Notes under the pieces: generated by a model | Told to the model about the DNA's origin: nothing | The model's database searches: none | The model's input: only the letters and a program-made list of their open reading frames with translations | In this document: positions 15,355 to 62,762 of the stretch, piece after piece | How positions within the stretch are numbered: position 1 is the stretch's first letter | Layout: each line of letters begins with the position of its first letter | Program-made: the position numbers and the translations under genes | Assembly: GCA_963818965.1 (NCBI GenBank) | Contig: CAWFUG010000012.1 | Coordinates: forward strand, 32,001 to 96,000 | Length of the DNA: 64,000 nt | Origin: an uncultured Verrucomicrobiae bacterium | GTDB lineage: Bacteria; Chlamydiota; Chlamydiia; Chlamydiales; Rhabdochlamydiaceae | Reading direction: 5' to 3'

Positions 15355-15430
15355 TATACCGAACGTGACTCAAGAACCGGGATTGGGCCGATGTGAAAGC
15401 TCCCGCGGTTCTTGAGTCACGTTCGGTATA
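15355..15430. repeat. ERIC-like palindromic element, arm type C, internally deleted
   Basis: TATACCGAACGTGACTCAAGAACCG...GTGAAAGCTCC...CGGTTCTTGAGTCACGTTCGGTATA. Confidence 0.85.
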
Positions 15431-15435
15431 TATGC

Positions 15436-15523
15436 AATTTCACCACAGAGAGGGAAAACCACAGAGAGGAAGTTCCTATTTAAAAATTTCCTCTCTGTGG
15501 TTTTCTCTCTCTGTGGTGAAATT
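15436..15523. repeat. CACAGAG-type palindromic repeat
   Basis: AATTTCACCACAGAGAGGGAAAACCACAGAGAGGAA...TTCCTCTCTGTGGTTTTCTCTCTCTGTGGTGAAATT. Confidence 0.9.
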
Positions 15524-15545
15524 CAGCTATTTATGCAATAAAGCC

Positions 15546-15643
15546 GTTGGGTTGTATTGCACTAATACTACCCAACTTACGATCGTCGAATCGCGGCGGC
15601 TTTAACGCAGCTCTAATGCAGGTTACTTTAGATGATTGGTATT
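15546..15643. repeat. ERIC-like element, diverged half copy (arm type F)
   Basis: Loop GTTGGGTTGTATTGCACTAATACTACCCAAC, core GATCGTCGAATCGCGGCGGCTTTAAC, then a 37-nt arm ending GGTATT. Confidence 0.7.
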
Positions 15644-15705
15644 AGTTGTACTTAAAAACACATCTTTAATATACAGAAAATAAGAAACCAGATCTTGTAG
15701 AAAAA

Positions 15706-16098
15706 ATGTCTTTTAAAATATTCCTATTTGGAGAAGCGGAAAAAGGGGCCTTTTGCACTCCCCATTTGTGTCGCTCTCTTTCAGATCTCTCTGAGACTTT
15801 TGGAAACCCTCCTGAAGAGAGCGTCGGTCTGGTATACGCCGTTCAAGCCTTGCTTTATGAACGAGAACTGATCTATTTCCGCGTGCGCGAAGAGGGATTC
15901 AGCACCGCAGATTATATGAAAGGAATCCAACTTTTGGGAAAAAAAGGAGAGCTAGACGACCTGGCAGCGATTTGCATGCCAGGTGTCGGAAATGCAGATA
16001 TCCTCGAAGCGACAACGCCTCTTTGCTCTGTGCGGCGCACCTTGCTCATCACAACAGAAAAGGACCTCTATGATTATCTCACGCATCGAAATAAGTGA
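15706..16098 (+). CDS. Conserved chlamydial hypothetical protein
   Basis: Clean 130-aa ORF convergent with ahpC, an arrangement I recognise from chlamydial genomes; no function assignable. Confidence 0.75.
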   Translation: MSFKIFLFGEAEKGAFCTPHLCRSLSDLSETFGNPPEESVGLVYAVQALLYERELIYFRVREEGFSTADYMKGIQLLGKKGELDDLAAICMPGVGNADILEATTPLCSVRRTLLITTEKDLYDYLTHRNK

Positions 16099-16666: not shown

Positions 16667-16675
16667 AGAATTACC

Positions 16676-17311: not shown

Positions 17312-17330
17312 ACGGACACCTATCGAAAAA

Positions 17331-17404
17331 TGCACCGGAGAGGATTCGAACCTCCGACCTCCCGGTTCGTAGCCGGGTACTCTATCCAGCTGAGCTACCA
17401 GTGC
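17331..17404 (-). tRNA. tRNA-Arg (ACG), CCA not encoded
   Basis: GCACTGGTAGCTCAGCTGGATAGAGTACCCGGCT-ACG-AACCGGGAGGTCGGAGGTTCGAATCCTCTCCGGTGCA: acceptor, D, anticodon and T arms all pair. Confidence 0.98.
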
Positions 17405-19508: not shown

Positions 19509-19517
19509 AAAACATCT

Positions 19518-19573
19518 TATACCCCGCGCGCTTAGGAATGGTGCATTTGAGCGCGTGAAAGCCCCGAGATTCT
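19518..19573. repeat. ERIC-like element, partial (arm type B)
   Basis: TATACCCCGCGCGCTTAGGAATGGTGCATTTGAGCGC-GTGAAAGCCCCGAGATTC, near-identical to the left arm at 44253. Confidence 0.85.
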
Positions 19574-19634
19574 GGGGTCGTATTCCTCTCTTTTTTAGGG
19601 TTAAAAACCCGTTTCTGTGGTATCCTCTTTCTCT

Positions 19635-20252
19635 ATGAAAGAGCACGATTCAGTGGATTGGCACGCGCAGTGGGAGCAGTTTGCGCCCGGATTTCAAAAG
19701 GGACTAGCCCATGTAGACCTCGCGGCCTATGGGGGGCCTGTGCTGCGCATGAAGCCGGGTGCCGGCTTTGGGGATTTTTCCCATCCGACGACCCGATTAG
19801 CGCTTAGCTTGATGAGCCCAATGGCACGAGAACACCAGGTGATCGACATCGGCTGTGGTAGCGGGGTTTTGTCTGTAGCGGCAGCGCTTTTGGGATCCGC
19901 TGGAGTGGTCGGAATTGACATTGAGAGCGAGGCCCTCCAACACTCTGAAGAAAATGCGCGATTGAATGGAGTGGAAGATCGGGTGGCTTTCACAGCTCAG
20001 ATCGATTCCCTCGACAAAAATAACGCTTATTTGATCGTGATGAATATGATCCTCTGCGAACAAAAGAGCGCCTGGGAGTCTTTGCCCTTGCTCCACGATC
20101 TTAAAGCTACGATCGTCACCTCGGGGATCTTGACGCAGGATCGCGAGATCTACTTAAACCTAACGAGGGAATGGAACTGGACTTTACTTCGAGAATCTCA
20201 AGAAGGCGAGTGGTCTGGATTCACGTTCTTACAAATTAACAATCATCTATAG
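19635..20252 (+). CDS. prmA: Ribosomal protein L11 methyltransferase-like (PrmA catalytic domain)
   Basis: PGAGFGDFSHPTT, DIGCGSGVLS, GIDIE. Confidence 0.75.
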   Translation: MKEHDSVDWHAQWEQFAPGFQKGLAHVDLAAYGGPVLRMKPGAGFGDFSHPTTRLALSLMSPMAREHQVIDIGCGSGVLSVAAALLGSAGVVGIDIESEALQHSEENARLNGVEDRVAFTAQIDSLDKNNAYLIVMNMILCEQKSAWESLPLLHDLKATIVTSGILTQDREIYLNLTREWNWTLLRESQEGEWSGFTFLQINNHL

Positions 20253-21150
20253 AAGTTGACTGACCTTCGATGTCTTCTGGATACTCTCCAAATTCTATGC
20301 GGAGGATGTTCCATTCTGGCAAGTAATAGTCGCGTAAATAGTTGCGACAGGGGATGTAGCTGGGATGGATCCATTGATCGGGGGCGATCACGATCTTAGC
20401 GCAGTTTCGATTGAGGTAAGCCCCCCACCAAGAAAAGGTGGAAGCTCCCATGATCATGTGTTTCATTCGGGACATCAAGTAAAGATCCGCAATGTGATCG
20501 TTACCTTCAATAAAGACGACATTTTTGCACAATTGAGAAAAGTGTTTTTTACACCACTCAATCCGATCAGAGAAGACCACAAAAAGGGCATCTTCGGGGA
20601 AGTAGCCGATCGCTTCCTTGTAATAATCAAGACCTACGAAAGGATGTGTATTCGTCTCATGTTTCCAGCGCGAATAGGTGCGCACATGGAGTGCCACCGT
20701 ATAGGGATGAGCGAGGAGATCTCCGTACTTGTTCTCTAAATAAGTCGTATAGACGTCAGATGGCGCAAAAAGATCTAAGATCTTTTCTCGATGGTGGTGA
20801 AAGTACTTCCACGACTGCAGATACCCGTAGAGATAGAGATCGGAAAGCTCTGGGATCGGCTCGAAACCTTGGGGAGCGGATTGAGCAAATTGGTGAGAAT
20901 GGGCTCGCGGAGGTGAGGAAGCGTCGAGTCGAAAAAACATATGCTCTCGATTATGAGGGATGTTGTACCACTCTGAGTGCAAATCGGGAAAAAAAGCGTG
21001 CACGTCGTGATCCCAAGCATAAGACTGTATTGTCGCAATCTGGAACAGCTGGTTTCCGAGTTGTCCCATGACATTTCCCGTCACAAAGGAAGTGTTTGCG
21101 TGGCAAAAGGATAATCCGCATAGCAATAGGCAAATGAGCTCCTTGAACAT
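20236..21150 (-). CDS. Alpha-1,2-fucosyltransferase (GT11), signal peptide
   Basis: GQLGNQLF, GYLQSWKYF, LHVR, FSD, STFSWWGAYL. Confidence 0.9.
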   Translation of the reverse strand: MFKELICLLLCGLSFCHANTSFVTGNVMGQLGNQLFQIATIQSYAWDHDVHAFFPDLHSEWYNIPHNREHMFFRLDASSPPRAHSHQFAQSAPQGFEPIPELSDLYLYGYLQSWKYFHHHREKILDLFAPSDVYTTYLENKYGDLLAHPYTVALHVRTYSRWKHETNTHPFVGLDYYKEAIGYFPEDALFVVFSDRIEWCKKHFSQLCKNVVFIEGNDHIADLYLMSRMKHMIMGASTFSWWGAYLNRNCAKIVIAPDQWIHPSYIPCRNYLRDYYLPEWNILRIEFGEYPEDIEGQSTSIDDC

Positions 21151-21165
21151 GACTCTCTCCTTTTT

Positions 21166-22080
21166 TTAACCATCATCCCAAGAAGCTGACGGACCATCGA
21201 TGTCAGCGGGATACTCCCCAAATTCTATGGGGATGATTTTCCATTCGGGCAAATAATAGTCGCGTAAATAGTTGCGACAAGGGATGTAGGCGGGATGCAT
21301 CCACTGATCGGGAGCGATGATGATCTTATGGCGATTTCGGTTGAGGTAAGCTCCCCACCAAGAAAAGGTCGAAGCTCCCATGATCATGTGTTTCATTCGG
21401 GACATAAGATACAGATCGGCGATATGATCGTTGCCTTCGATAAAGACGACATTTTTGCACAATTGGGAGAAATGTTTTTTACACCAGTGGATCCGATCGG
21501 AGAAGACGACAAAAAGAGTGTCTTCTGGGAAGTAGCTAATCGCTTTCTTGTAATAATCCAAGCCTATAAAGCCATGTACATTCATTTCATGCTTCCAACG
21601 CGAATAGGTCCGCACATGCAGTGCCACTGTGTTGGGATGAGCGAGGAGATCTCCATATTTATTTTCTAAGTAGCTCGTATAAGCATCAGAAGGAGCAAAA
21701 AGCTCCAAGATCTTTTCTCGATGGTGGTGAAAATACCTCCACGACTGAAAATACCCACGGAGATAGAGATCGGGAAGCTCTGAAATGACATCGAAACTCA
21801 AGGGGGTCGATTGATTAAATTCGTGAGAATAGGCTCGTGGAAGCGGAGAAGCGTTGACCCGAAAGAAAATGTGTTCCCGATTATAAGGTATGTTATACCA
21901 ATCTAAGTGCAATTCAGGAAAAAAAGCAGGCACATTGTGATCCCAAGCATAAGACTGTATCGCTGCAATCGCAAATAACTGATTCCCGAGTTGTCCCATG
22001 AGACTGCCTGTGACGAAAGAAGTGTTTGCCTGGCAAATGGACATTCCACATAGCAATAGAAAAATGAGTTTCTTGAACAC
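21166..22080 (-). CDS. Alpha-1,2-fucosyltransferase (GT11), tandem paralog, signal peptide
   Basis: Same GT11 motifs. GTG start at 22080 inferred by alignment with the paralog (MFKKLIFLLLCG). Confidence 0.9.
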   Translation of the reverse strand: MFKKLIFLLLCGMSICQANTSFVTGSLMGQLGNQLFAIAAIQSYAWDHNVPAFFPELHLDWYNIPYNREHIFFRVNASPLPRAYSHEFNQSTPLSFDVISELPDLYLRGYFQSWRYFHHHREKILELFAPSDAYTSYLENKYGDLLAHPNTVALHVRTYSRWKHEMNVHGFIGLDYYKKAISYFPEDTLFVVFSDRIHWCKKHFSQLCKNVVFIEGNDHIADLYLMSRMKHMIMGASTFSWWGAYLNRNRHKIIIAPDQWMHPAYIPCRNYLRDYYLPEWKIIPIEFGEYPADIDGPSASWDDG

Positions 22081-22150
22081 CGCTCTCTCTGCTTTAAAAA
22101 TTTTAAAGAGCAGAGCATAAGTGACTAAAAACCAAAAAATCAAGAACTAT

Positions 22151-22214: not shown

Positions 22215-23900
<1,686 letters not shown>

Positions 23901-25548: not shown

Positions 25549-25623
25549 CTTCCACGACTCCATTCTTTTCCCAAAAATATACGCAAGCGCTAATAATATT
25601 GGCACGGAAATACTTGAGCAGTT

Positions 25624-25790
25624 TATACTGCAATCGGTTGAAAAGCTGCAATTTGGCCATGTCAAAGCCTCAGGGTTCGACGATTGAAAGTGGGGGTAGT
25701 ATTGATGAGATACAACCCCCACTTTCAATCGTCGAACCGCGAGGACTTTCACACAAGCCAAATTGCAGCTTTTCAACCAATTGCAGTATA
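25624..25790. mobile_element. Full-length 167-bp ERIC-like palindromic element (putative MITE), arm type A
   Basis: TATACTGCAATCGGTTGAAAAGCTGCAATTTGGC...GCCAAATTGCAGCTTTTCAACCAATTGCAGTATA enclosing the core GTCAAAGCCTCAGGGTTCGACGATTGAAAGTGGGGGT-loop-inverse. Mobility is inferred. Confidence 0.85.
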
Positions 25791-25803
25791 AAATCCCGTT
25801 CCC

Positions 25804-28188: not shown

Positions 28189-28270
28189 GAAATACTACCC
28201 TCATTTCCGATCGTCGAACCCCGGGGCTTTGACATGGCCCAATCCCGATTCTTGAGTCACGTTCGGTATA
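28189..28270. repeat. ERIC-like element, half copy (arm type C), overlapping the GT9 3' end
   Basis: Minus strand: TATACCGAACGTGACTCAAGAATCGGGATTGGGCCAT-GTCAAAGCCCCGGGGTTCGACGATCGGAAATGAGGGTAGTATT. Confidence 0.9.
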
Positions 28271-29181
28271 ACCACAGCTTGAAAAGCTTGGATGACGCGC
28301 CGGACGCTGATCCAGCGCTTCCACTGCTTATCGCGCCAACGCAGCCCCTTGAGATTGGGAATCCACGCAGAGGGTGTAACGACCTTGCCTGGGGCCCATG
28401 CAGGGCGCCAGAATTGAGAGGCTTGCCGGCTGCGGCAAATGGTCACGGTAGGAAGCCCAAGGCAAGAGGCGAGGTGTCCGATCCCCGAATCGTTTCCGAT
28501 CATGTATCCCGATTCACACACCATGCGGGCCATGTCTGATAAGGTAGGAAGATCAGGGGCCTCGATTCCCCACCGCACCCGTTCTTCTTGAGTCAGCAAT
28601 AAAAGGGGCTCAAACCCTTTTTTTTCTAGCTTGCTTTTTAGTGCGAGGTATTTCTCTTTCGGCCAATTTTTCCCCTCTCGGGAACTCTCTGGATGGAAGA
28701 TAATTCTGCTTAAGTGTTTTCTCGGTAAGACCCCTTCTGGAACGCAGATCCCATTCGAGCGCGTCACCACCTTCAATCCTAAACCTTCGCTGCAAAATCG
28801 AAGGAGATTCTCCACAAAGGTTCGGTGTCCTTCGAAGCGCCCTCCTGACCAGTAAGCATAGTCGCGTCTTTTCGTCGCAATCGGATTGAGAACGATTGTC
28901 TTTTCAGGGTAGTGCTTTTGGCAATAAGAGAGGACCGCTTGCATCTTTTCAGACTTTTCATAGATGACAAAATAGCGATCGTATTCTGCGAGCAGGGTTT
29001 CGAGTGCGTTTACGGAAGGCAAAGCTAAGAGCGGAAGATGGGGAAACCACTCCTGCAATCCCTGCAAAAAGGGGTGGTAAGTCGTGACAGAATAACCATT
29101 GAGGTGGAGATTATTGGAGAGAACAAGAGCAATAAGTCCATCTCCCAATCCCATACAACTGAAAACAGCGCATCTTTTCAT
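28201..29181 (-). CDS. Glycosyltransferase family 9 (heptosyltransferase-like)
   Basis: GLGD, HP...KNWP, IGNDSGIGHLASCLGLPTV. Confidence 0.85.
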   Translation of the reverse strand: MKRCAVFSCMGLGDGLIALVLSNNLHLNGYSVTTYHPFLQGLQEWFPHLPLLALPSVNALETLLAEYDRYFVIYEKSEKMQAVLSYCQKHYPEKTIVLNPIATKRRDYAYWSGGRFEGHRTFVENLLRFCSEGLGLKVVTRSNGICVPEGVLPRKHLSRIIFHPESSREGKNWPKEKYLALKSKLEKKGFEPLLLLTQEERVRWGIEAPDLPTLSDMARMVCESGYMIGNDSGIGHLASCLGLPTVTICRSRQASQFWRPAWAPGKVVTPSAWIPNLKGLRWRDKQWKRWISVRRVIQAFQAVVIPNVTQESGLGHVKAPGFDDRK

Positions 29182-29234
29182 GCCTCGGATATATACCATA
29201 CTTCTCGCTACAGTTCAATGCAGAGAAAAATTTA

Positions 29235-33035: not shown

Positions 33036-33794
33036 GAAAATCTGACGCCAACGGATGCTGTGAAGGGTGGTCTCTTCTTTTTGGTAGGAGAGCATCGCTT
33101 CGAGAATTTCAGAAGAGGAAGCTTTTGCAAATTTCTGAATTTCTGCGTCTGTAAGACGGATAGCCATAGACAGAGGGTCTTTTCCTTCTCTAATGATCTC
33201 TTTTAAATTTGCCAGACACTTCTGAAAAGTTCTTTGTAGAACAAAAAGTCTTAACGAACATCCCGCGATAAAGAGAATGGGTAAAAAGAGAAAATAAAAG
33301 CCTCCTATATCCCAGTCGAAGAGAATTTCTGTTAGAGCCAAGGACCAACTGAAGAGGACGAAAGAGAGGAAAACTTTCGGTTCATAAGTTTTGAGAAAAA
33401 GAGGCCCTAAATAGCGCCTGATGGGATGAGAGGCAGTTTGATACGCCAAAATCTCTTCAAAATAGGGTTCCTCAAACCCCATCCGCACTGCATGGACCAT
33501 TTCATGGGCGAGGACTGAGCTTTTGGAGTGTCTGGGATGGATCTGAATCTGACAGTCGATCTTTCCCTGTTCCAACTCTTCGATCCACGTCGCTGCTGCC
33601 TCCCAAAGATGGAGATTTTTAGAGCTCTTTTGGATCTTAATCCAGTGGGGGGTCATTTGGAAAAGAGAGGGAACAAGCGCGTCTGAAGAAATAGAACCAC
33701 TCTCCGCGCGTTGCAAAAACCCAGAAACTGATTCTCTCGGGCCGGGGAAAATCCCATATTCTCCCCACCTCAATAGCTCCCTGTCTGAAATCAC
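33015..33794 (-). CDS. Membrane protein with HExxH motif (putative Zn metalloprotease)
   Basis: LAHEMVHAVR...FEEILA, followed by two TM segments. Confidence 0.6.
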   Translation of the reverse strand: MISDRELLRWGEYGIFPGPRESVSGFLQRAESGSISSDALVPSLFQMTPHWIKIQKSSKNLHLWEAAATWIEELEQGKIDCQIQIHPRHSKSSVLAHEMVHAVRMGFEEPYFEEILAYQTASHPIRRYLGPLFLKTYEPKVFLSFVLFSWSLALTEILFDWDIGGFYFLFLPILFIAGCSLRLFVLQRTFQKCLANLKEIIREGKDPLSMAIRLTDAEIQKFAKASSSEILEAMLSYQKEETTLHSIRWRQIFLEFFTL

Positions 33795-34900
33795 TCTTCA
33801 CCTGGTTGGAACCGATTCGACTCCGCTATCTTGCGAGAGATGCACCTGTTTATCCAAACGCCTAATCCGATCAAACCGATGAAATTCAAGACGACACTCA
33901 TTCCAAGATAGAGCAGCAACCGGTTACTTTTTTTGCTGAGGAGCATCAGCCGCTCGCGCACCATCTTTTCAAAGGGGGACTCCGTCTCATGCCACGTACC
34001 GGCATACTTGTGCTGCGCATAGATCGCCAGCTCCTCTTTAGGAGCGTCGAAGAAGTAGGCGGGAAAGACGATATCGCGATTACCGTCTTGGTTGTTCGCT
34101 TCTCGAAATGCCTCTGCGAACAGCCAAAAGGTGCGGTGCAATACGCGATTGAGCGTCGTATCGCGATCGACCCCAGGATAGTCCGCTTGAATCTGATCCC
34201 ATTTCTCTGCGACAGAGTGTCTATAGGCCTGCAAAATGGGGTGATGAGGACGCGCGCCGATGAGATTATTCGTCGTATGCACACAAGAGGACAAGCTGCT
34301 CGTATGCGGCATATCGATGCCGCAGTAAAAATCAAAAGTCTCATTGAGAGGCGCGAACGATTTTAAGCATTTGACATCGTGATCGACATACACTCCCCCC
34401 TCTTGGTAGAGAATCACGCAACGGAGCAGATCTGATTTCTCTGCATAATTATCCGCCTTTGCAAAGCAACCCTGCAAGTCGTCCAACTCTAAATCATGCA
34501 CCCACCTCAGCTGCATCCCAGGACACGGCAAAGGGCGAGCCTGATCGGTCCAAAAACAAAAGGTCCAATCGGGATTTTTCGCCATCCACGTCCGCACATT
34601 TTCCACCGACTCCAAAGGGAAAGGACGAGGGCCCAACCAGATGAAGTGGACGACTTTGGGAATATGCATCTCTTTGTGTGAAAGAGACAGCAACCCCTTG
34701 TTTGAATCGTAGATCCCCTCATAAAGCCTAAGCGCTTCAAAATCCTGTTTAGTTTGCACATACTGCCAAGAGGGGAGCTCCTTTCCCGTAAGACTTGCAA
34801 AATCATCGGAAGAGGGTTTCTGGTACGTCTTTTTCTTAGCGCATCCAAATCCCAAAAACAAACAAGCCAAGATTAATAGCCTTACGATCAATAGTCTCAT
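33791..34900 (-). CDS. GT32 (DxD sugar-binding) glycosyltransferase, lipoprotein-like signal, C-terminal TM
   Basis: IPKVVHFIWLGP, SDLLR, GGVYVDHD; LGFGC lipobox-like. Confidence 0.85.
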   Translation of the reverse strand: MRLLIVRLLILACLFLGFGCAKKKTYQKPSSDDFASLTGKELPSWQYVQTKQDFEALRLYEGIYDSNKGLLSLSHKEMHIPKVVHFIWLGPRPFPLESVENVRTWMAKNPDWTFCFWTDQARPLPCPGMQLRWVHDLELDDLQGCFAKADNYAEKSDLLRCVILYQEGGVYVDHDVKCLKSFAPLNETFDFYCGIDMPHTSSLSSCVHTTNNLIGARPHHPILQAYRHSVAEKWDQIQADYPGVDRDTTLNRVLHRTFWLFAEAFREANNQDGNRDIVFPAYFFDAPKEELAIYAQHKYAGTWHETESPFEKMVRERLMLLSKKSNRLLLYLGMSVVLNFIGLIGLGVWINRCISRKIAESNRFQPGEE

Positions 34901-35922
34901 GTGCGTCTCCTCAGAAGCGTGCAGAAAAAAATGAGGTTCATCCCCACTAGTACTTTGAGAAAGAGTGCCAAGTTTTTATTTTTTTGAGCAACTTTTCCCA
35001 AAGATTTTTCCACTTTTTTTTCGAAAAGGGATTTTTTGTCCTTAGACTCATCCCACGCTGTCGCATAAAAATGCTGCGAGTAAAGAGAAGGAATTCCCGA
35101 CTTTGAGAAAAAATAGGCAGCCGGCAATAGGATATCGACATTGCCTTTCTGGTCGATCGTCTCAAATAGAGAGTCTGAGAGCGCGATGTAAGTGCGTTGC
35201 ATGACGACCTCAGCGCGGGAATAATCATCTCTTCCTCGGTACCGCGCCCCAATCGCATCCCATCTTTCTGCAATGAGATCGAGCACTTTTTCCACAGTCG
35301 GGTGGTGGGAGCGGGAACCGATCACTCCATTGCCGCAGGTGATGTTCCTGCCGACAAAGGGCTCGTGGGGCGTCTCTAGACAACAAAATAAGTCAAAACC
35401 CCGATGCATCCCCTCAAAAGGACGCAGACAGTTGGCATCGTGATCGACATAGACACCCCCTTGATCATAGAGAATCTCATATCGCAGAATGTCTGATTTT
35501 TCTCCCCAATTCGCAGACTCCTCATAACATCTCTCGAGTTTGGCAAAGGAAAAATCGGAGACCAAAATCGTCTCCATTCCCTCACAGGGAGGTTCCCTCT
35601 CTCGATCTGTCCAAAATTTCACCTTCCACTCTGGATTTTGAGCGATCCAGGTACGGACGTTTTCAACTGATTGGGGCGGAAAAGAGCGAGGCCCTAGCCA
35701 AATGAAATGGATGACAGGGGGGATCTTATAAGATGTGGCTTCTGAAAACTGCTCCTTTTCGTTCTTCTCATACAGCGCTTTTGCTAGCTGGAGAAATGCG
35801 AGATCTTTAGGCTGCGATACAAAGCGAAAATGGGGCGTCTCTTTCCCCATGAGCTGGTAGAAATCCTCAGACTCTCCAAAGAGCGCGGCCAGCGGAAAAA
35901 GCAAAAGGAGAAGTGTTTTCAC
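34897..35922 (-). CDS. GT32 glycosyltransferase, signal peptide, C-terminal TM
   Basis: IPPVIHFIWLGP, SDILRYEIL, GGVYVDHD. Confidence 0.85.
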   Translation of the reverse strand: MKTLLLLLFPLAALFGESEDFYQLMGKETPHFRFVSQPKDLAFLQLAKALYEKNEKEQFSEATSYKIPPVIHFIWLGPRSFPPQSVENVRTWIAQNPEWKVKFWTDREREPPCEGMETILVSDFSFAKLERCYEESANWGEKSDILRYEILYDQGGVYVDHDANCLRPFEGMHRGFDLFCCLETPHEPFVGRNITCGNGVIGSRSHHPTVEKVLDLIAERWDAIGARYRGRDDYSRAEVVMQRTYIALSDSLFETIDQKGNVDILLPAAYFFSKSGIPSLYSQHFYATAWDESKDKKSLFEKKVEKSLGKVAQKNKNLALFLKVLVGMNLIFFCTLLRRRT

Positions 35923-36879
35923 TTAAAACCTCCTCTTTCTAAAAAAAAGGATCCCAAGACAGAGATTAAAACCCGTTAACCCCAAAATGATCCCCAAATT
36001 CTGCGTCTGATCCTTTGTTATCCGCAACAACAGCTCTTCTACCTTCATTTCTGCCTCAGAACTGCGCGTGTACCACGTGCCTAAATGGCTGTGTCGCGCG
36101 TACTGACCTTCCCCCTTCTCTTGTAAACTGAAGAAATGGGGAGGAAATACGACATCACAGCGCCCTTCCTGGCCGTGCGATTCTCTGATCCCCATATCCA
36201 GCGCGCGAAAACTGCGGTGCTGCACGCGATTGAAAAGAGCAGAAGAGTCTCCTCCTGGATATACCCTCTCCAATCGATCCCATTCCCTCTGGAGCCATTC
36301 GATCGCCGATCTCAAAATGGGATGAGACGGTGCAGCACCGACGAGATGGGGGGAAGGGTTAACCGAAGAGCTCAAGACAGTAGTACCGAAACGCTCCATG
36401 CCGCAAAAAAAATCGCAAGATGTCTGAATCGGATCAATGGCTCGCAAACACTCTACATCGTGGTCAACGTAGACACCGCCTTCGCTCGAAAGGACAGCGT
36501 AGCGCAATAAAAGCGAACGCTCCCCGAAGTTGTCGCACTGAAAGTATTGATCTTCCAGTCTCGTTAAAGGAAAATCTTTAAAGAAGAGTGTCTTTGCCCC
36601 CAAACCGGAAAGAGCCTCTTTCCCATCTGTCCAAAATTTAACTGTCCAATCGGGATGCAAGCGGATCCAGCCCTGGATATTTTTCACCGAATCAGAGGTT
36701 AAAGGCTTGGGGCCCAACCAGATAAAGTGAAGTGTCTTCGGGATGGTTCCTCTTTCTGGTCCCTCTTTTTGTCTTAAACTATTGTAGAACTCCAGTCGCT
36801 GTACATCTTCAAGTGTCTGTATATAATCGGCATGGACACAAAAAGAAAGCGTCAAAAAAAGAATAATAAAACGTTTCAT
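35923..36879 (-). CDS. GT32 glycosyltransferase, signal peptide, C-terminal TM
   Basis: IPKTLHFIWLGP, SLLLRY, GGVYVDHD. Start set at MKRFII. Confidence 0.85.
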   Translation of the reverse strand: MKRFIILFLTLSFCVHADYIQTLEDVQRLEFYNSLRQKEGPERGTIPKTLHFIWLGPKPLTSDSVKNIQGWIRLHPDWTVKFWTDGKEALSGLGAKTLFFKDFPLTRLEDQYFQCDNFGERSLLLRYAVLSSEGGVYVDHDVECLRAIDPIQTSCDFFCGMERFGTTVLSSSVNPSPHLVGAAPSHPILRSAIEWLQREWDRLERVYPGGDSSALFNRVQHRSFRALDMGIRESHGQEGRCDVVFPPHFFSLQEKGEGQYARHSHLGTWYTRSSEAEMKVEELLLRITKDQTQNLGIILGLTGFNLCLGILFFRKRRF

Positions 36880-36905
36880 AGGCCTTGAGATTACATCCAA
36901 ACAAT

Positions 36906-37880: not shown

Positions 37881-37961
37881 CTATTTCCCTCTAGAAAAAA
37901 TTTGAAAGAGTATTAGAGCCTAAACTGCCAAGAACAGTCAAGGAAAAATTTCATTAAGACA

Positions 37962-38028
37962 GCGCCCGGTCAGGAATTGCGAATTTGAATTTTTGATCAG
38001 CTCCTGCAATTCCTCACCGGGCGCAGTA
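37962..38028. repeat. ERIC-like element, arm type D, core deleted
   Basis: GCGCCCGGTCAGGAATTGC...GCAATTCCTCACCGGGCGC; same arm as the 62065..62146 copy. Confidence 0.8.
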
Positions 38029-38175
38029 GGGATTCTTCAGGAGGAAAACGGCGTACCGCCACAGAATTCTCTTGATTTTGTGGGGTATTCCCTTTAATCT
38101 GCCATTTTTGCGTGTTTTTTATACCTCGTTTTTATACAACTAATCGTGTACTTCTCACCATTGAGGAATTAGTAA

Positions 38176-40769: not shown

Positions 40770-40794
40770 AAATGAGGGGATAGTGCGTTGTGAA

Positions 40795-42537: not shown

Positions 42538-42884
42538 TATTTTAGATTCCATAACTTACAATGACGTACATAGTAAATGCATCCCTGTCTATGACATAAT
42601 TGACATCCACCGCAAAGATTATGACCCATTTGACAATACCCAGCAGACGCCACTTGAACTCTCCACTGATTTCCACTCCTTTGCAAGGCCTGCACAGGGA
42701 ATGAATGGTCATCAATCACAACCATCATTTCATCATTTTCAAAATATAAATCTTGAGTGGAGACAACGAAGCTCGTCTCATGAGTATGAAGTTCTACTTC
42801 TTCTGAAGCCGCGCATTGCTCCATATGACCTAAGCCAAACAAACTGACAAACCCTAAACAAGCCACATAAATCAACTCTCTCAT
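42537..42884 (-). CDS. Small exported Cys/His-rich protein
   Basis: GGAGG RBS, signal peptide, C-terminal CQMGHNLCGGCQLCHRQGC; TAATG coupling to the next gene. Confidence 0.8.
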   Translation of the reverse strand: MRELIYVACLGFVSLFGLGHMEQCAASEEVELHTHETSFVVSTQDLYFENDEMMVVIDDHSFPVQALQRSGNQWRVQVASAGYCQMGHNLCGGCQLCHRQGCIYYVRHCKLWNLK

Positions 42885-42927
42885 CTTAGACCTCCAAGGT
42901 ACGAAGTTATTGTATACCCAACTTTTC

Positions 42928-44250
42928 TTAGACAGCCGTTATAGCAACTGTTTTCTTTTTTGCAAAGTTTCTCCCCGAAGCCAATACATACCCGACGCCG
43001 AGGGCCATATGCAGCCAGACGTAGTTGCGGAAGAGGCCTTGATTGAATTGCAGGCAGAAGAGCATGACGAGTAAAGAGAGGAACAGGGCAAAAATTTCGA
43101 TCCTCTGTTCCAAGGGGATCTCCCGGGTGAGTGCATTGCGAAAGAGGGAATAGATCGCATAGAGAAAGGCACCCCAGGCACAAAATCCCAAAAGACCGAG
43201 GCTTCCCAGAAGTTCAAAGAGAACATTTTTCGGATCGAGCAGGGTAAACTGCTCGATAGCGGGATTGTCCAATACCGCTTTTTCAAAGAGATACAGGTTT
43301 TGCAAGTAGACGAGGGGACCGACACCTCCTAACCCCACGCCGAAAAGAGGGTGGGCGCAAAAGATGTGCCACGCATTTACAATCGCCTCCCAGCGCTCTA
43401 AGAAAGATCCTTGCGCCAGTCCAATAGCGAAGAACTTGTAAAAGGTCGTTACAAAAAGCTGATAGAAACAGAGAGCAAACCCAGCGAACAATCCAAAAAA
43501 GATCCATCCCATCCGCACTGTCTTCTGAACTAATCCAGCAATAAAGGGGCGCATCCACGCACCACGCGCGAGAAAAGGGAATGCGATGAGAAAAAACACA
43601 TACCCAAAAAGGGCGCCTGTAGACGTCGATGCGATGAGTAAAAAATTGACTAGAAGGAGGGGCACGAGCGTTTTTAAGCGAAAAAAAGAGCCTTCTTGCA
43701 ACACTTTTTTCGTGTTGTAATACATGACAGGGGCGATCGCATACAGCGCATAATAGGAAGGTTCATAAGAGAGCCCCTGCCCGCGAGCGATGAAACCGAG
43801 CACTCTCTGGCGCACCAGAGGATCTTCAAAACCAAAAAAAGAAAAGACAAATTGCAATGCTGCATAAGAGCCGATGCATAAAAAACTGCCGAAATAGAGT
43901 TTTAAAATTTTTTGCCGATCGAAGAAAAACATCCATTGTATAGGCAATAAGAAGAAGAGTAGTACGGTAACACCGTTTGCTACGACGTATCCCAAAGAAC
44001 GGGAGAAGCATGGGCTGAAGAAGGAAGAGATCAGTTGGGAGAAGAAAAGAAAGAAAAGAGGGTAGATCACTCGTTTTGGAAAAAAACAGCACTGGCTCGA
44101 AAAAAAGGTGAGGGGGAGTAGGAGCAACGCGAGGATATGATTGAGCTTCGGCTTAAAGAGATAGACCTCTACAAAGAGCAATTCTGCAGAGACCGTGAGG
44201 AAATAAAGAAAAATCAGTCCATAAAAAAATATGTTGGGGCCTGTCGTCAA
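42928..44250 (-). CDS. O-antigen ligase/polymerase (Wzy/WaaL-like) membrane protein
   Basis: Multi-TM; R..G...EPS, HPLFGVGLG. Start uncertain: TTG at 44250 just outside the palindrome, or GTG at 44409 inside it. Confidence 0.75.
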   Translation of the reverse strand: MTTGPNIFFYGLIFLYFLTVSAELLFVEVYLFKPKLNHILALLLLPLTFFSSQCCFFPKRVIYPLFFLFFSQLISSFFSPCFSRSLGYVVANGVTVLLFFLLPIQWMFFFDRQKILKLYFGSFLCIGSYAALQFVFSFFGFEDPLVRQRVLGFIARGQGLSYEPSYYALYAIAPVMYYNTKKVLQEGSFFRLKTLVPLLLVNFLLIASTSTGALFGYVFFLIAFPFLARGAWMRPFIAGLVQKTVRMGWIFFGLFAGFALCFYQLFVTTFYKFFAIGLAQGSFLERWEAIVNAWHIFCAHPLFGVGLGGVGPLVYLQNLYLFEKAVLDNPAIEQFTLLDPKNVLFELLGSLGLLGFCAWGAFLYAIYSLFRNALTREIPLEQRIEIFALFLSLLVMLFCLQFNQGLFRNYVWLHMALGVGYVLASGRNFAKKKTVAITAV

Positions 44251-44252
44251 GT

Positions 44253-44419
44253 TATACCCCGTGTGCTTAGGAATGGTGCATTTGAGCGCGTCAAAGCCCC
44301 GGGGTTCGACGATCGGAAATGGGGGTTGTATTTCATCAGTACTACCCCCATTTCCGATCGTCGAATCCCGGGAGCTTTCACGCGGCTCAAATACACCATT
44401 CCTAAGCACACGGGGTATA
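44253..44419. mobile_element. Full-length 167-bp ERIC-like palindromic element (putative MITE), arm type B
   Basis: TATACCCCGTGTGCTTAGGAATGGTGCATTTGAGC...GCTCAAATACACCATTCCTAAGCACACGGGGTATA with the same core as 25624..25790. Confidence 0.85.
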
Positions 44420-44426
44420 AACTTCT

Positions 44427-44524
44427 GTCGATTTTCGGGTTCTTTTGGAGGGGTAATATACGCATGTTGATATTACCCCTCCCAAAAGAATCGAAAATTG
44501 GCCAAAATAATCCCGAAAATCGAC
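44427..44524. repeat. Nested inverted repeat of a third type
   Basis: GTCGATTTTCGGG..TTCTTTTGGAGGGGTAATAT-loop-ATATTACCCCTCCCAAAAGAA..CCCGAAAATCGAC. Confidence 0.75.
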
Positions 44525-44547
44525 CAAGCTCAATTTGATGGCAGGCC

Positions 44548-45936
44548 CTAAATCCTTTCATAGATGTCACTTAAGCGTACGATGTCATCCTCGCCGACAT
44601 ACTCTCCGACTTGCACCTCGATGAGCTCTAAGGGGACTTTACCTGGGTTTTCCAATCGGTGGACTTGCGATTTCGAGATATAGATCCCTTCATTTTCGTG
44701 GATCAATTGCTCTTCTTCTCCAATTGTGACTTTCGCTGTGCCTTTGACCACAACCCAGTGCTCGCTGCGGTGGTAGTGCATCTGCAAACTGAGGCGCTGT
44801 TGAGGGAGCACGACGATCCGTTTGATCTTATAGCGCTCCCCTTCTTCGAGAACGGTGAAGCTTCCCCAAGGGCGGTGGCTCGTCACATGTTCTGAGGACT
44901 CTTTTGCATTTTTCTCTTTGAGCGCATCGACGAGTTGTTTGACTCTCTGCGACTCCCCTTTTTTGCCGATAAAAAGCGCATCATCTGTCTCGATGATCAA
45001 GAGATCTTCGAGGCCGATCGTCGCGATCAATCGCTTTCCGCCTAAAATCAGACACTGTTTCGTGTCGATGTCTAGGATATTTCCTCTTTTCACATTGAGA
45101 TTCTCATCTTTTTCCAAAGCATCGTAGACACTGTCCCAAGAGCCGATATCTGACCAATTGATTTCGAGGGGGATGACGAATGCACGTGCCGTTTTCTCCA
45201 AAAGGGCGTAGTCGATCGAGATGTCTGGCATCTCTCCGAAGTGGGAGAGCATCTCTTGAAAAGAGTTGGAATAGTGCTTCATGATCTCAGGACAAAATTG
45301 TTCCATCTCTTTTAAAAAAGAAGAGATCTGAAAGAAAAAGATCCCTGAATTCCAGAGATAAGAGCCGCTCTCGACGTATTCTTTTGCACGAGCATAATCG
45401 GGTTTTTCGACAAAAGCTTCGACCTTTGCGGGGGTGTTTATTTGTGGATTTTCTACCTTGATGTAGCCGTAACCTGTCTCCGGTTTTTGGGGACGGATGC
45501 CGAAGACCATGTGATGGCCCAATCGCGCGTTTTCTTCTGCTTCTTTGAGTGTTTGTAAAAAGAGGTCTTCTGGGAAAATGAGGTGGTCAGAAGAGGAGAC
45601 GAGAAAACACTCAGAGGGGTCGACCCCACACTTTTCTTCGAGGTATTTGACTCCTAAACAGATCGCAGGTGCTGTGTTTTTGCGATCGGGCTCGATGAGG
45701 ATCTGCTTTTCTAGAGTGGGATCGAGAAGACTCACCTGGGATTTAACGAGGTGAAAATAATTTTGGTTAGTGATGATGAGGAGATCGGACGGGGGAACTA
45801 AAAGCAGATAGCGCTGGATCGTCTTTTGCAAAAGGGAGTACTTCTCGCCAAAATGCAAAAACTGCTTAGGAAAGGATTGACGCGAAATCGGCCACAAGCG
45901 CGTTCCGCTGCCGCCGGCAAGAATGATGATTTTCAT
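44548..45936 (-). CDS. manC: Mannose-1-phosphate guanylyltransferase/mannose-6-phosphate isomerase
   Basis: ILAGGSGTRLWP..PKQF, ETGYGYI, WSDIGSW, cupin LSLQMHYHRSEHW. Confidence 0.96.
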   Translation of the reverse strand: MKIIILAGGSGTRLWPISRQSFPKQFLHFGEKYSLLQKTIQRYLLLVPPSDLLIITNQNYFHLVKSQVSLLDPTLEKQILIEPDRKNTAPAICLGVKYLEEKCGVDPSECFLVSSSDHLIFPEDLFLQTLKEAEENARLGHHMVFGIRPQKPETGYGYIKVENPQINTPAKVEAFVEKPDYARAKEYVESGSYLWNSGIFFFQISSFLKEMEQFCPEIMKHYSNSFQEMLSHFGEMPDISIDYALLEKTARAFVIPLEINWSDIGSWDSVYDALEKDENLNVKRGNILDIDTKQCLILGGKRLIATIGLEDLLIIETDDALFIGKKGESQRVKQLVDALKEKNAKESSEHVTSHRPWGSFTVLEEGERYKIKRIVVLPQQRLSLQMHYHRSEHWVVVKGTAKVTIGEEEQLIHENEGIYISKSQVHRLENPGKVPLELIEVQVGEYVGEDDIVRLSDIYERI

Positions 45937-57968: not shown

Positions 57969-58006
57969 TCCAAGTGGGCGGGGTATAGCTTCTAGTGAAA
58001 CATCTA

Positions 58007-59398: not shown

Positions 59399-59484
59399 AA
59401 AAATCCCCTTCCCAAAGGAAGAACGTCTTGATACAACGTCGTTACATAAAAATTAACAGGCTCTAATGTCCTGCTAATTTTATT

Positions 59485-59557
59485 TATACCACAGTCGGCT
59501 TGAAACTTCGAATTTGGACAGCGCGAAAGCTCCTGCGATTGAGGTGGAAGGGGTATA
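59485..59557. repeat. ERIC-like element, deleted copy (arm type E)
   Basis: TATACCACAGTCGGCTTGAAACTTCGAATTTGGACAGC (38 nt) + GCGAAAGCTCCTGCGATT ... GGGGTATA. Confidence 0.7.
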
Positions 59558-59568
59558 GATCCTGCTTG

Positions 59569-60048
59569 TCAAATTCCCGATTCTTCAAGGTGTTTCGGTA
59601 TCATCCCCTCATTTAAAGATAAGTCTAGAGAGGCTTTCGTCCATGAGGAGGGTGACACAAAGTCATGTATCGTAATGGCGATGTCGGTGAGAGGACAGCA
59701 AATACGGGTTACAGCAGGATGATGGTAAAATACATTTGTCTGGGGTCCTAGTTCAAATAGGGCGGGATCTTCACTATGAAGAAAGATCTTCTTTCCAGTT
59801 GCGATCGCAAACCCCAACTCGAGATGCGTTCCGTATCCTCCAGGGAGAAGGACAACGACAAAATCAGTTTTTGAAATACCTTCTAATTCGAGAACCGCGA
59901 CTTCCCGCAACCGCTCTTTGCTGACCGATTTTACGCTTCCATGTACTGTCCAGTCATAGGCAATTTCGTGGCCTAGCGTCTTCAGCGCCTCTCTCACTAG
60001 ATTATGGGCGGCCATTCTCAAAAGAGATGTTGCAATGTAATATTTCAT
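59569..60048 (-). CDS. Nucleoside 2-deoxyribosyltransferase-like protein
   Basis: KYYIA, YDW, DFVVVLLPGGYGTHLELGFAIATGKKI; AGGAG RBS. Confidence 0.7.
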   Translation of the reverse strand: MKYYIATSLLRMAAHNLVREALKTLGHEIAYDWTVHGSVKSVSKERLREVAVLELEGISKTDFVVVLLPGGYGTHLELGFAIATGKKIFLHSEDPALFELGPQTNVFYHHPAVTRICCPLTDIAITIHDFVSPSSWTKASLDLSLNEGMIPKHLEESGI

Positions 60049-60149
60049 GTAACTCCTAAAGCTCGTAACGGTTCAATGACTTGCATTGAAAAAATAAGTC
60101 TATCGATGATCAGAAATTTTTCCTAATCAAAAATTGAAAAATCGGTACC

Positions 60150-60255
60150 ATGCTCCGCGCGCTATAGGAATGGTGCGAGGGGGTATAAAAACTGTTCTTT
60201 TCTTTGGAGGTAAATTTTGGTAAGGTCCACATGTTATACCCCGCGCGTTTAGAAA
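60150..60255. repeat. Two decayed arm-type-B fragments
   Basis: CCGCGCGCTATAGGAATGGTGC...GGGGTATA and TATACCCCGCGCGTTTAGAAAGG. Confidence 0.55.
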
Positions 60256-60298
60256 GGCTAGGTCATTGTTATGGAAATGGGGAAATAGGATTGGACTC

Positions 60299-61702
60299 AT
60301 GATTTCTGCACTTAACAATTTGAACTTTTATATATTTGCTGCAGTGATCGGACTTTTACTTGGCGTGGGTATCTATAAAACAAGACATATCCAGTTAGAA
60401 TCCTCATATCTTTTTGCAGAAAGAAAGACCTCCTGGGGTGCTCTCACTGCAACCTTAGTAATGACTGAGTTCAATAGCGCAACGCTCCTCTCTTTTTGTT
60501 CTTTGGGATATGTGGCTGGATTTTGGGCGCTCATTTTACCTGCCATTTTTCTTATCGGACTCTTGTTTTATGCCTTAACGGTAGCAGAAAAATGGAAACG
60601 TTTCGATGGCTTTTCTGTCGCAGGGTTTTTCAGAGAGAAATATGGAAACAAGATAGGTGTTTTTGCAAGTTCATTGCTTTTGCTATCGATGCTTGGATTT
60701 AGCGCCGCTTACATTAAATCTCTTGCCCTTTTATTTCAGCCTCTTTTCCCTCAGCTTAATCTTTGGATTATCAGCGCAACTCTTGTAGGAACAATCCTAG
60801 CAATGATGCTAAAAGGCGGTCTTACTGCCATTATCCGTACGGATATATTAAGCTTTTTCATGACATTGTTATTTATACCTCTGATGATTTTTTTTGTTTG
60901 GAACCTGCCAACAGAAGAAATTCTTCCATTTTCTTTAGCGCAAGGGCAGGAAATTTTGCCGATCCATTTTGTCTTTTCTTTGACTATTTTAACGATGTTT
61001 ACCTATATTTTAGCCCCTTGGTACGGACAAAAAATTTTTGCTGCTCAATCTGCTAAGACTGCTTACTGGGCAGTTTTTTCAGCAGCAGTTTTTGTCTTTT
61101 TCTTGTACGGAGCAGCGATCTTTGCAACAGCTCTTCTCAAACAAAAGGGAATAGAATGTTCTTCTGCCGAGCAAGCTTTGCCACAATTGATTAATCAATT
61201 CTTCCCGCTAGGGTTTAAAGGTTTCGCTTTTGCGATCCTCTTCACTACTTCAGCGACCACCTTGACGGGGGTCTGGAGTGCCATGACGGCAATGCTCATA
61301 GGGGATTTTCTTAAACCAAAAATCGCCAGTCGCAATCGACCTATTTGGATAACAACATGTTTTGCTGTGCTTTCTTACCTTTTAGCTAATTCCTTAGTCG
61401 ACCATGTTTTTGATAAGCTGATTTTAGCTAACATTCCTGTAGCGGCCCTCTCTTTTGGATTGCTTGCGGGCTTTTATTGGCAGAAAGTAACCCGCCTCGG
61501 CGTCTATTTAAGCATCATAGTGGGATGTATGTGTGGAGTAGGTTCCTACCTCCGATTCGGCGAATCAGGAGGGTACACCTGGTATTGGGCTGTCTATGGA
61601 ATCCCGCTTTCATTTTTGGCTGGAGTTATAGGCTCTTACGGAAGTTTAAAGCTGCGGAATCGATACAATAGCGATCTCCCGTCGGTGGAGGGCCATCTTT
61701 AA
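60299..61702 (+). CDS. Sodium:solute symporter family transporter
   Basis: About 13 TM; YLFAER, GGLTAIIRTD, YWQKVT..G. Confidence 0.8.
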   Translation: MISALNNLNFYIFAAVIGLLLGVGIYKTRHIQLESSYLFAERKTSWGALTATLVMTEFNSATLLSFCSLGYVAGFWALILPAIFLIGLLFYALTVAEKWKRFDGFSVAGFFREKYGNKIGVFASSLLLLSMLGFSAAYIKSLALLFQPLFPQLNLWIISATLVGTILAMMLKGGLTAIIRTDILSFFMTLLFIPLMIFFVWNLPTEEILPFSLAQGQEILPIHFVFSLTILTMFTYILAPWYGQKIFAAQSAKTAYWAVFSAAVFVFFLYGAAIFATALLKQKGIECSSAEQALPQLINQFFPLGFKGFAFAILFTTSATTLTGVWSAMTAMLIGDFLKPKIASRNRPIWITTCFAVLSYLLANSLVDHVFDKLILANIPVAALSFGLLAGFYWQKVTRLGVYLSIIVGCMCGVGSYLRFGESGGYTWYWAVYGIPLSFLAGVIGSYGSLKLRNRYNSDLPSVEGHL

Positions 61703-62762
61703 ATAGATCTCCAAGATGTCCATTGCACCGACTGCATTTAGCTTCCTTACCTGAAGAAAAAGGGTTCCATTTTGATTCAAGGGTTACGTTTTCAGGACAA
61801 ATAGGAGCCTTAAAACTGGGCCATCCAGTGCCCGAGTCAAACTTTGCCGCTGAACTGAAAAGAGGAAGGGCGCAACCAGCACACTCATAAATGCCCGCCT
61901 TTTTGTTGTCGAAATAGGCATTTTTAAAGGGAGCTTCTGTTCCCCCTTTTCTTAAAATCTTAAATTGTTCGGGCGTGAGTTTCTCTTTCCATTGTTCTTC
62001 TGTCAGAATGAGTTTTTTTCCATCAAATCGATAATTTGAAGGGCAATCGCTAATTTTTTGTAAGGAAATACAGGCCCCCTTTTCGATCGTGGAGTCCCGG
62101 GGCTTTGACGCGCTCAAATTCGCAATTCTTGACCGGGCGCAGGATAAGAGAGAAATTTTGGATGAGCCCCACACTTCTTTGAGTCTTTTATCCCTTCCAC
62201 AACGCATTCGATAAAATTTATATTTAATCGGGTTTTTTTTATAATATTTCTGGTGATATTCTTCGGCAGGGTAAAACGTGTTTATAGGCAGGATTTCTAC
62301 TAAAATAGGCTTTACTTGATTCGCTTTAATTAACTCTTCTTTTGAGGCTTCTGCTTCCCTTTTTTGGGTGTCTGTCGAATAAAAGATCACTGGGCGGTAT
62401 TGATCTCCGGTATCGCAAAATTGCCCGTCATTACGTGTGGGATCAATATTATGCCAATAAAAATCTAGCAATTGAGCATAGGTGACTTTTCGGGGATCAA
62501 ACACTACACGTACAGATTCTAAATGGCCAGTTCCTCCTGCAGACACTTCCTCATAGGTCGGATTTTTAGTATTTCCACCAGCATATCCAGCAGTAGTAGA
62601 TATCACCCCTGGGACTCGATCAAAATCATGCTGAAGACACCAAAAACATCCACCTGCGAAAATCGCTGTCTCCGTGTTTTCGGAACTAAATAAATTCGAA
62701 GTCATTAAAAACATTCCAATGACAATCTTGACAAACAATCTAGGATATGAGAATACGATCAT
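61626..62762 (-). CDS. msrAB: Bifunctional methionine sulfoxide reductase MsrA-MsrB, probable signal peptide
   Basis: FAGGCFW, AEEYHQKY; KFDSGTGWPSF, GHLG..F.DGP, RYCIDS. Start uncertain. Confidence 0.93.
   Translation of the reverse strand: MIVFSYPRLFVKIVIGMFLMTSNLFSSENTETAIFAGGCFWCLQHDFDRVPGVISTTAGYAGGNTKNPTYEEVSAGGTGHLESVRVVFDPRKVTYAQLLDFYWHNIDPTRNDGQFCDTGDQYRPVIFYSTDTQKREAEASKEELIKANQVKPILVEILPINTFYPAEEYHQKYYKKNPIKYKFYRMRCGRDKRLKEVWGSSKISLLSCARSRIANLSASKPRDSTIEKGACISLQKISDCPSNYRFDGKKLILTEEQWKEKLTPEQFKILRKGGTEAPFKNAYFDNKKAGIYECAGCALPLFSSAAKFDSGTGWPSFKAPICPENVTLESKWNPFSSGKEAKCSRCNGHLGDLFKDGPPPTGDRYCIDSAALNFRKSL
62065..62146. repeat. ERIC-like element, half copy (arm type D), inside the msrAB linker
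   Basis: Minus strand: TATCCTGCGCCCGGTCAAGAATTGCGAATTTGAGCGC-GTCAAAGCCCCGGGACTCCACGATCGAAAAGGGGGCCTGTATTTC. Confidence 0.88.

Follow-up and report, generated by a model that had tools for sequence, protein, structure and literature searches.

Enterobacterial ERIC elements are about 127 nucleotides (nt) long, the pneumococcal RUP is a MITE, one of the miniature inverted-repeat transposable elements, derived from IS630/Tc1-mariner, and the IS200/IS605-type and REP/RAYT systems leave their target unduplicated and enter beside a short motif in a single orientation. In a 2024 review of prokaryotic MITEs, Rickettsia palindromic elements (RPE) are described as palindromic repeats with an open frame, many copies of which lie in frame inside unrelated genes (PMC10969869). 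The Correia element is described in another source as having TA as its target, a full-length class beside internally deleted ones and no known transposase (PMC2649163). The present analysis concerns a dispersed family of palindromic elements in a 64-kb stretch of an uncultured Rhabdochlamydiaceae bacterium (assembly GCA_963818965.1, contig CAWFUG010000012.1, positions 32,001 to 96,000; hereafter the window). These loci are probably copies or remnants of a non-autonomous DNA transposon, that is, a MITE with a 163-nt, nearly fully self-complementary body that inserts at TA, is flanked by TA on both sides and adds a net 165 nt.

The source genome (G000) comprised 12 contigs and 2.24 Mb and was 87.85% complete. 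Direct and inverted repeat families were searched over the whole window, and the ten loci named in an earlier sequence-only reading proved to be one repeat family, as had been claimed (direct families D2, D4, D8, D10, D12 and D17; inverted pairs I1-I5, I8-I11, I14, I15, I18 and I19). Nine of the ten were matched at E<=0.01 by an nhmmer profile of 23 full copies; the tenth (60229-60255) was tied in via direct repeat family D10, and a piece at ~60150 was identified by eye. The two complete copies both measured 167 nt from TATAC to GTATA and both formed single long hairpins, in agreement with the same reading; with the usual outer T and A, they spanned 169 nt (TTATAC...GTATAA at 25623-25791 and 44252-44420). 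The remaining eight loci were incomplete and consisted of short forms, halves or fragments. BLAST of the two complete copies against their own genome gave 250 alignments in 99 merged loci. The nhmmer profile, which was searched against all contigs, gave 247 matches in 129 merged loci, of which 40 were counted as near full length (>=145 nt) and 89 were partial. The density of the element in the window was ~2.7 times the genome average. In general terms, these are the features of a MITE: small, multi-copy, with full copies of 165-168 nt and no gene inside.

The mobility of the element was evaluated via 11 empty-site comparisons of three independent kinds, all of which fitted the entry of a 163-nt body at TA such that each side carries TA. 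The presence/absence polymorphism and the TA duplication that the sequence-only reading had proposed to look for were both encountered, the former as filled and empty sites (contig C5, copies of a second repeat and a paralogue) and the latter as TA on each side of the element. Contig C5 is a second version of window ~38061-45669 with 94-96% identity, and it lacks the element at 44253-44419; it reads CATTTAAGC, whereas the window reads AAGTTA[TAC...GTA]TAAAC, and the flanks are 94% identical. The window element at 15355-15431 is nested within a copy of a second MITE family (~15299-15545), nine other copies of which were uninterrupted at the exact TA (CTGAATATATGCAA versus CTGAATA[TAC...GTA]TATATGCAA). 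In the third kind, a paralogue read GATTTTAAGGAT, whereas an 834-residue gene on contig C1 read GATTTTA[TAC...GTA]TAAGAAC and had gained exactly 55 codons. The same-genus genome G001 was rejected as a source of empty sites because its coding identity was only ~70-73% and synteny was broken at both full copies. The target of the element is TA, preferably preceded by a pyrimidine: of 72 flanks, 54 had T or C at that position. Sequence differences between copies on contigs C7, C8 and C2 amounted to 1-2 of 171 positions, which indicates that at least one subfamily spread recently. According to the filled and empty sites, the nested insertion and these near-identical copies, the element is mobile now or was formerly. 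Its decay follows two routes, namely internally deleted short forms and halves ending at the loop. In a census of the 228 termini in the genome, the nearest inverted pairs were separated by 160-179 nt in 40 cases and by 60-109 nt in 24, and only four fell between 110 and 159 nt.

Of the 34 copies that were parsed, 18 had a 163-nt body, which corresponds to a net gain of 165 nt or 55 codons. One subfamily had a 166-nt body (three parsed copies, together with two whose start was mis-set at TATATAC) and a net gain of 168 nt; both net lengths are multiples of three. The six reading frames were stop-free in 19, 19, 16, 11, 5 and 0 of 24 intact copies, so that four frames were usually open, and by our own calculation a random 55-codon stretch is stop-free with a chance of ~0.07. 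Hence, an insertion within a gene adds ~55 residues and need not destroy the gene. For the fixed length from which the sequence-only reading had argued for recognition by structure, a codon-multiple length with four open frames and copies in frame within genes is a simpler reason. About 10 of the 40 full copies were embedded centrally in long open frames; they were read in a shared set of frames and gave closely related 55-residue peptides, and the peptide IPRPVRNCEFELRESSRDSTIEKGASIEEIQAPFSIVESRGFDALKFAIPDRAGY and its variants recurred in long open reading frames (ORFs). Called proteins bearing the peptide gave at least seven database matches, a figure that reflects the word index used and is not a total. 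Five of these came from the source genome, and three of the five carried methyltransferase/TRAM, MR_MLE_C and Sulfate_transp domains. NCBIfam includes RPE models; four element peptides matched no Pfam or NCBIfam model at E<=1.

Half-elements can turn into linkers or C-termini. A 392-residue ORF runs through the half-element at 62061-62148, which supplies residues 218-246 in frame and forms the linker between the MsrA and MsrB domains. In the relatives G011 and G014, msrA and msrB were separate, divergently oriented neighbours, and the fusion bridged by the half-element therefore needed an inversion. In both relatives, msrA stopped right after ...RLK.LWG, which is the point where the element-derived residues start in the window ORF; in G001, the msrB frame was open for only 178 residues. 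The fusion breakpoint may have been located at the palindrome centre. A glycosyltransferase-9 ORF (28201-29199, - strand) owed its final ~23 codons and its stop to the half-element at 28189-28270. With regard to the complete copies, the usual frame of 44253-44419 was stop-free on the - strand into a Wzy_C-like membrane-protein ORF (42928-44409) and in frame with that downstream ORF.

The structure of the element was explored in an alignment of 36 full copies, which were oriented with the GTGAAAGCTCCCGCG-type module at the left irrespective of the direction of transcription. The copies had a modular layout: the termini TATAC(C/T) were constant, the outer arm came in six or more sequence types, an asymmetric module followed, the inner stem was again of several types, and the loop was small. 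Each arm type was paired with its own complement on the opposite side, and the whole length was an inverted repeat with the termini TAC(C/T)..(G/A)GTA. The 68 stem pairs (2448 cells) contained 98.3% standard pairs, and 46 of the 68 had two-sided changes (412 cells). None of 500 column shuffles reached the observed pairing or two-sided values, and the pairing fell to 34-46% when the partner was slid by 1-3 columns. The stem mismatches were 26 G.T, 26 A.C and 16 others; G.T was no commoner than A.C, which indicates that wobble pairs were not favoured. This pattern is the one that random decay of perfect DNA palindromes predicts, with no sign of selection at the RNA level, although the orientation used in the alignment ignored the direction of transcription.

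The conserved asymmetry described in the sequence-only reading was real: GTCAAAGC-CCCGGGG on one arm was opposed by GTGAAAGCTCCCGCGG on the other in nearly all 36 full copies as well as in copies from other genera. In the hairpin, the module arms (AGCT-CCCGCG versus CCCGGG-GCT) left one T bulged out and created a C.C mismatch; both irregularities were kept in all subfamilies and across families and were never "repaired" despite the co-varying background. Moreover, the module was the best-conserved portion in copies from other genera and families. The 7-8 nt next to the module had four alternative forms, some of which were unable to pair. The proposal that recognition depends on structure rather than on sequence was not supported as it stood: co-variation is seen in the stems, but the sequence of the asymmetric module is itself strongly conserved from family to family. 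With respect to the module, the loop and one adjoining mismatch faced one way in 19 and the other way in 17 of 36 copies, even inside one subfamily, and the copy at C8:186940 was a chimera in which halves of two different subfamilies were joined at the loop.

The family was dispersed in its own genome and across the order, as seen in the BLASTN and covariance-model searches that the sequence-only reading had suggested. A covariance model built from 37 copies was applied to an order sample of 151 genomes from 111 genera, and full-length matches of 165-169 nt were obtained in 50 genomes and 39 genera. In a second sample, which was labelled as phylum and in which all listed genomes belonged to the same order or the same family, 46 of 151 matched at E<=1e-5. 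No match was obtained with the model in the 27 sampled genomes of a family with 1.0-1.2 Mb genomes, and the same-genus relative G001 had only two BLAST matches. The exact two-motif pattern of the module, with 25 specified bases, occurred in at least 118 stretches of public genomes; among the matches listed, the records were metagenome-assembled genomes with labels such as Parachlamydiaceae, Waddliaceae, Rhabdochlamydiaceae, Simkaniaceae and Protochlamydia. Some pattern-bearing genomes (loci L083, L084, L109 and others) were labelled Verrucomicrobiae, Acidobacteriota or archaeon, which reflects either mislabelling or occurrence outside chlamydiae.

No Rfam match was found for the element: the sole match at the gathering score in the window was a tRNA gene (17331-17404, - strand). 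In an Rfam search with five copies, all 24 sub-threshold matches were to families with long stems, namely microRNA precursors and a single viral replication element, and the best of them reached 45.1 bits where the gathering score was 90. The idea that the core resembles the tRNA T-arm had no Rfam support, and a candidate TTGACG...TATAA promoter was rejected because its 32-nt spacing does not fit. The sequence-only reading knew of no description in chlamydiae, and none was found in the full-text literature, with supplements and subscription journals outside the coverage. In their accessible portions, the hydra-symbiont and Rhabdochlamydia papers discuss transposases and contain no such element, the Waddlia genome paper counts only repeats >200 bp, and the Estrella paper mentions repeats only in relation to assembly. 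In the accessible text of the 2024 MITE review (PMC10969869), the string 'chlamyd' occurs nowhere.

Among the described systems, ERIC/IRU elements resemble the family as imperfect, dispersed and sometimes intragenic palindromes of 100-170 bp, according to the review (PMC10969869); the TATAC ends that the sequence-only reading ascribes to ERIC would be a further likeness. The element differs from them in its 165-nt length, in its host taxon and in the absence of sequence similarity. The label "ERIC-like" of the sequence-only reading is therefore apt for the general architecture only: blastn at word size 11 gave no match in 20,395 E. coli records from 5,426 complete genomes, and none was found among 72,556 plasmids. 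The likeness to RPE extends to palindromes of ~150 bp, an obligate intracellular host, an open frame and in-frame copies that add a conserved peptide. The differences are that the host belongs to another phylum, that the element peptides have no NCBIfam or Pfam match, that the chlamydial element has a TA target and an insertion geometry defined by empty sites, and that it is one full hairpin with conserved asymmetric modules in many families of an order. The Correia element (CREE/nemis) shares the TA duplication, inverted-repeat ends, a directional core, size classes, the lack of a known transposase and a reported inversion, according to the sources (PMC2649163; PMC10969869). CREE, however, has been reported only in Neisseria, whereas the chlamydial palindrome is full-length and in-frame coding copies are common. 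CREE is also marked by a 26-bp Correia repeat, and no sign of its IHF sites, promoters or RNase III processing was seen in the chlamydial family, in which no search aimed at them was made. MITEs of the IS630/Tc1-mariner group have the TA duplication and the pyrimidine-TA-purine preference in common with the family. They differ in that neither the source genome nor a set of 12 IS630 loci of relatives yielded an IS630-family element whose ends match. Unlike IS200/IS605-type palindrome-associated elements (PATE) or REP/RAYT, the element has TA on both sides, and PF01797 had no match in its assembly. Hence, the element is a TA-targeting palindromic MITE that is RPE-like within genes and Correia-like in target and size classes. 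It lies outside RPE, CREE and ERIC by sequence or taxon, the Correia element being compared by description only.

The coordinates of the window features are collected in Table 1. Single-strand DNA (ssDNA) folding was used for the complete copies, each of which was compared with 200 shuffles. The - strand assigned to 25624-25790 places the GTGAAAGC-type module on the left.

Table 1. Element loci and one host ORF in the 64-kb window.
Feature	Position	Strand	Basis
Complete element, 167 nt (163-nt body and TA on each side)	25624-25790	-	nhmmer E 1.8e-32; ssDNA hairpin -75.9 kcal/mol, z -19.9; 0/200 shuffles as good
Complete element, 167 nt	44253-44419	-	fold -88.7 kcal/mol, z -21.7; 0/200 shuffles as good
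Short form of 77 nt that lacks the core but has both termini and one module	15355-15431	.	repeats I18, I10
Degenerate partial: loop, right inner stem, module, decayed right arm	15546-15644	.	nhmmer model positions 21-98
Short degenerate form: left arm and module, decayed right end	19517-19585	.	repeats D8, D10, I4, I11; nhmmer
Half-element, loop to one terminus	28189-28270	.	repeats D2, I3, I5, I10; model positions 2-85
Short degenerate form: arm, TTTGATCAG-type module, opposite arm	37958-38028	.	repeat I19; nhmmer
Short form, ~74 nt, both termini retained	59484-59557	.	nhmmer model positions 1-57
Two terminal fragments (~60150-60195, ~60233-60255)	60150-60255	.	repeat D10 and reading by eye
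Half-element ending at loop	62061-62148	-	nhmmer model positions 83-168
Host ORF, msrA-msrB fusion	61626-62804	-	Pfam: PMSR residues 46-196, SelR 276-389

If the loci are a MITE, a transposase acting in trans would make a 2-nt staggered cut at TA, and TA on both sides fits such an enzyme better than an HUH enzyme. The best guess from the TA geometry would be an IS630/Tc1-mariner-like enzyme, which may be missing from the 88%-complete assembly or located on another replicon. It would read the TAC termini together with the conserved asymmetric module, GTGAAAGCTCCCGCG opposite CCCGGGGCTTTGAC. The element would spread only from nearly perfect palindromic source copies, and the stem changes on both sides that separate the subfamilies would follow from this. 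The loop flips and the chimeric copy could be accounted for by recombination or template switching, either between arms or between copies. A number of results weigh against such a transposon. PF13358 (IS630 DDE_3) had no matches in the source genome. Of 41 relatives, 13 had DDE_3 and 17 had the element by BLAST, and six had both, where chance alone would give 5.4; DDE_3 was not matched in the copy-rich genomes G007, G032 and G017. The 12 IS630 loci of relatives shared no ends with the element, and no gene enclosed by an element with these termini was found in the source genome. There were 18 end pairs more than 1 kb apart, and the two that were inspected, together with one 256-nt pair, were unrelated fragments, two of them enclosing host genes and none a transposase. 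Conservation between genera was highest internally and not in the sub-terminal arm, which is unusual if only terminal repeats matter. In addition, the bases at the junctions would fit an insertion of ATAC...GTAT between T and A as well as a TA duplication, and the sequence cannot separate the two.

An IS630 element was consequently rejected as the partner, given no DDE_3 in the source genome, no association in relatives and unrelated ends. A cognate autonomous insertion sequence with the same ends was found neither in the source assembly nor among the 12 IS630 loci of relatives, to which the search was confined. PF01359 (mariner) had no matches in the source genome, but the control for this model also matched nowhere. 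PF01609 detected an IS4-like element in three copies with 99.9% identity and one IS5-like element, whose ends were unrelated to the palindrome family, and the ends of an IS110-family element present in two copies were likewise not shared. An apparent element with cargo on contig C4, where termini 2.4 kb apart surrounded HigA/Doc-like genes, was rejected since the second end is a mirror image, C4 being a whole-contig palindrome (624-22227 versus itself, 99.5%). With the HigA/Doc-like toxin-antitoxin genes near its axis, this contig may be a genuine hairpin replicon or may have arisen as a fold-back artefact of assembly.

The lack of a transposase partner would also suit mobility driven by structure, in which a folded single strand or an extruded cruciform is recognised by its shape. 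In that case, an HUH/Y1-type or other hairpin-binding enzyme, or host replication and repair factors, would act rather than a DDE transposase that binds terminal repeats. Such a mechanism is considered improbable, even though the hairpin spans the whole element and the two-sided stem changes accumulated while the bulge and the C.C mismatch were kept across subfamilies and families. The HUH gene that the sequence-only reading had in mind was not present in the assembly, as PF01797 (Y1_Tnp) and PF07282 (TnpB) both had no matches in the 87.85%-complete genome. Moreover, TA at both ends and insertion in both orientations are unlike the behaviour of IS200/IS605-type and REP/RAYT systems, and the module is conserved in sequence and not in shape alone. 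The equal numbers of G.T and A.C mismatches remain in favour of recognition by shape, since complementarity was kept as Watson-Crick DNA pairing and not as RNA wobble, and so do the uncoupling of loop orientation from module orientation and the chimeric halves at C8:186940.

The same absence of a G.T excess over A.C argues against maintenance of the copies for host use, as mRNA-stability or RNase III hairpins, promoters, protein-binding sites or a peptide module, with mobility being ancient and incidental. Many copies do lie just upstream of long ORFs; for example, the complete copy at 25624-25790, which is located between a NamZ-like gene (- strand) and a UvrD/PcrA-like helicase gene (Pfam assignments), ends 13 nt ahead of the helicase ATG at 25804. 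However, neither orientation is exclusive and the contexts include coding, 5' and 3' positions; decay affects most loci, with 89 of 129 being partial, and near-identical copies point to recent spread. The conservation of the module across families of the order and the repeated use of one reading frame in genes would be expected under a host role, and such roles are reported for other MITEs, Correia and ERIC among them (PMC10969869; PMC2649163), whereas the same-genus G001 is almost without copies. On balance, host use is very unlikely to be what maintains the family, and a TA-targeting MITE is the preferred reading.

Other repeats were observed alongside the family. The second MITE family is a CACCACAGAGAGG-rich palindrome of ~170 nt with at least 12 copies, including ~15299-15545, 13613-13731 and 4725-4795 in the window, and its loop likewise occurs in both orientations. 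Its ends (GGCGTTGTTGCRTAA...) match the terminal repeats of the single IS5-like element (G000:C9:266872-268011), which carries a 344-residue DDE_Tnp_1 ORF. The IS110-family element (G000:C2:48810-50536 and G000:C9:448489-450216, 99.65% identical) is inserted in a copy of this second family. A third palindromic repeat (ATTTTCGGGTTCTTTTGGAGGGGTAATAT...) at 44431-44529 adjoins the full element; it is missing from contig C5 and has ~18 matches in G001. Contig C5 itself is 9.8 kb in length and is without both palindromic insertions, and it represents either strain heterogeneity or a real duplication. Contig C11 (973-26136) starts with a diverged palindrome of ~25 kb at 78-86% identity. Within the window, four tandem paralogous ORFs (369, 341, 325 and 324 residues) with ~1-kb periodic repeats D3, D9 and D11 are located at 33791-37880, and two adjacent paralogous ORFs that share a 300-nt stretch at 87% identity (family D1) are located at 20236-22143.

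Accounts of environmental chlamydiae usually name insertion sequences and gene loss as the forces that shape them. No published account of a small palindromic element with order-wide spread was found, and here such an element occurs in one third of the sampled genomes and at more than 100 loci in one of them. In practical terms, it breaks assemblies and misleads gene callers through N- or C-terminal extensions and 55-residue inserts, and it is a possible marker for strain typing. To our knowledge, the mobilising enzymes of RPE, Correia and ERIC are still being sought; the defined target geometry, the recent activity and the large number of genomes provide a basis for finding the enzyme of the MITE described here. 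It is also conceivable, if rather unlikely, that no dedicated transposase is needed. In that case, the bulged palindrome would spread by host replication and repair or by a hairpin-reading enzyme, selection would favour source copies that can be translated, and in environmental chlamydiae the family would continually give rise to new protein loops and termini and to gene fusions such as msrA-msrB. If this were true, it would be a second, independent case of selfish DNA living inside the genes of obligate intracellular bacteria. Besides Rickettsia, these chlamydiae are a second lineage with mobile palindromes in frame within genes, and whether such elements are general to intracellular life can now be tested.

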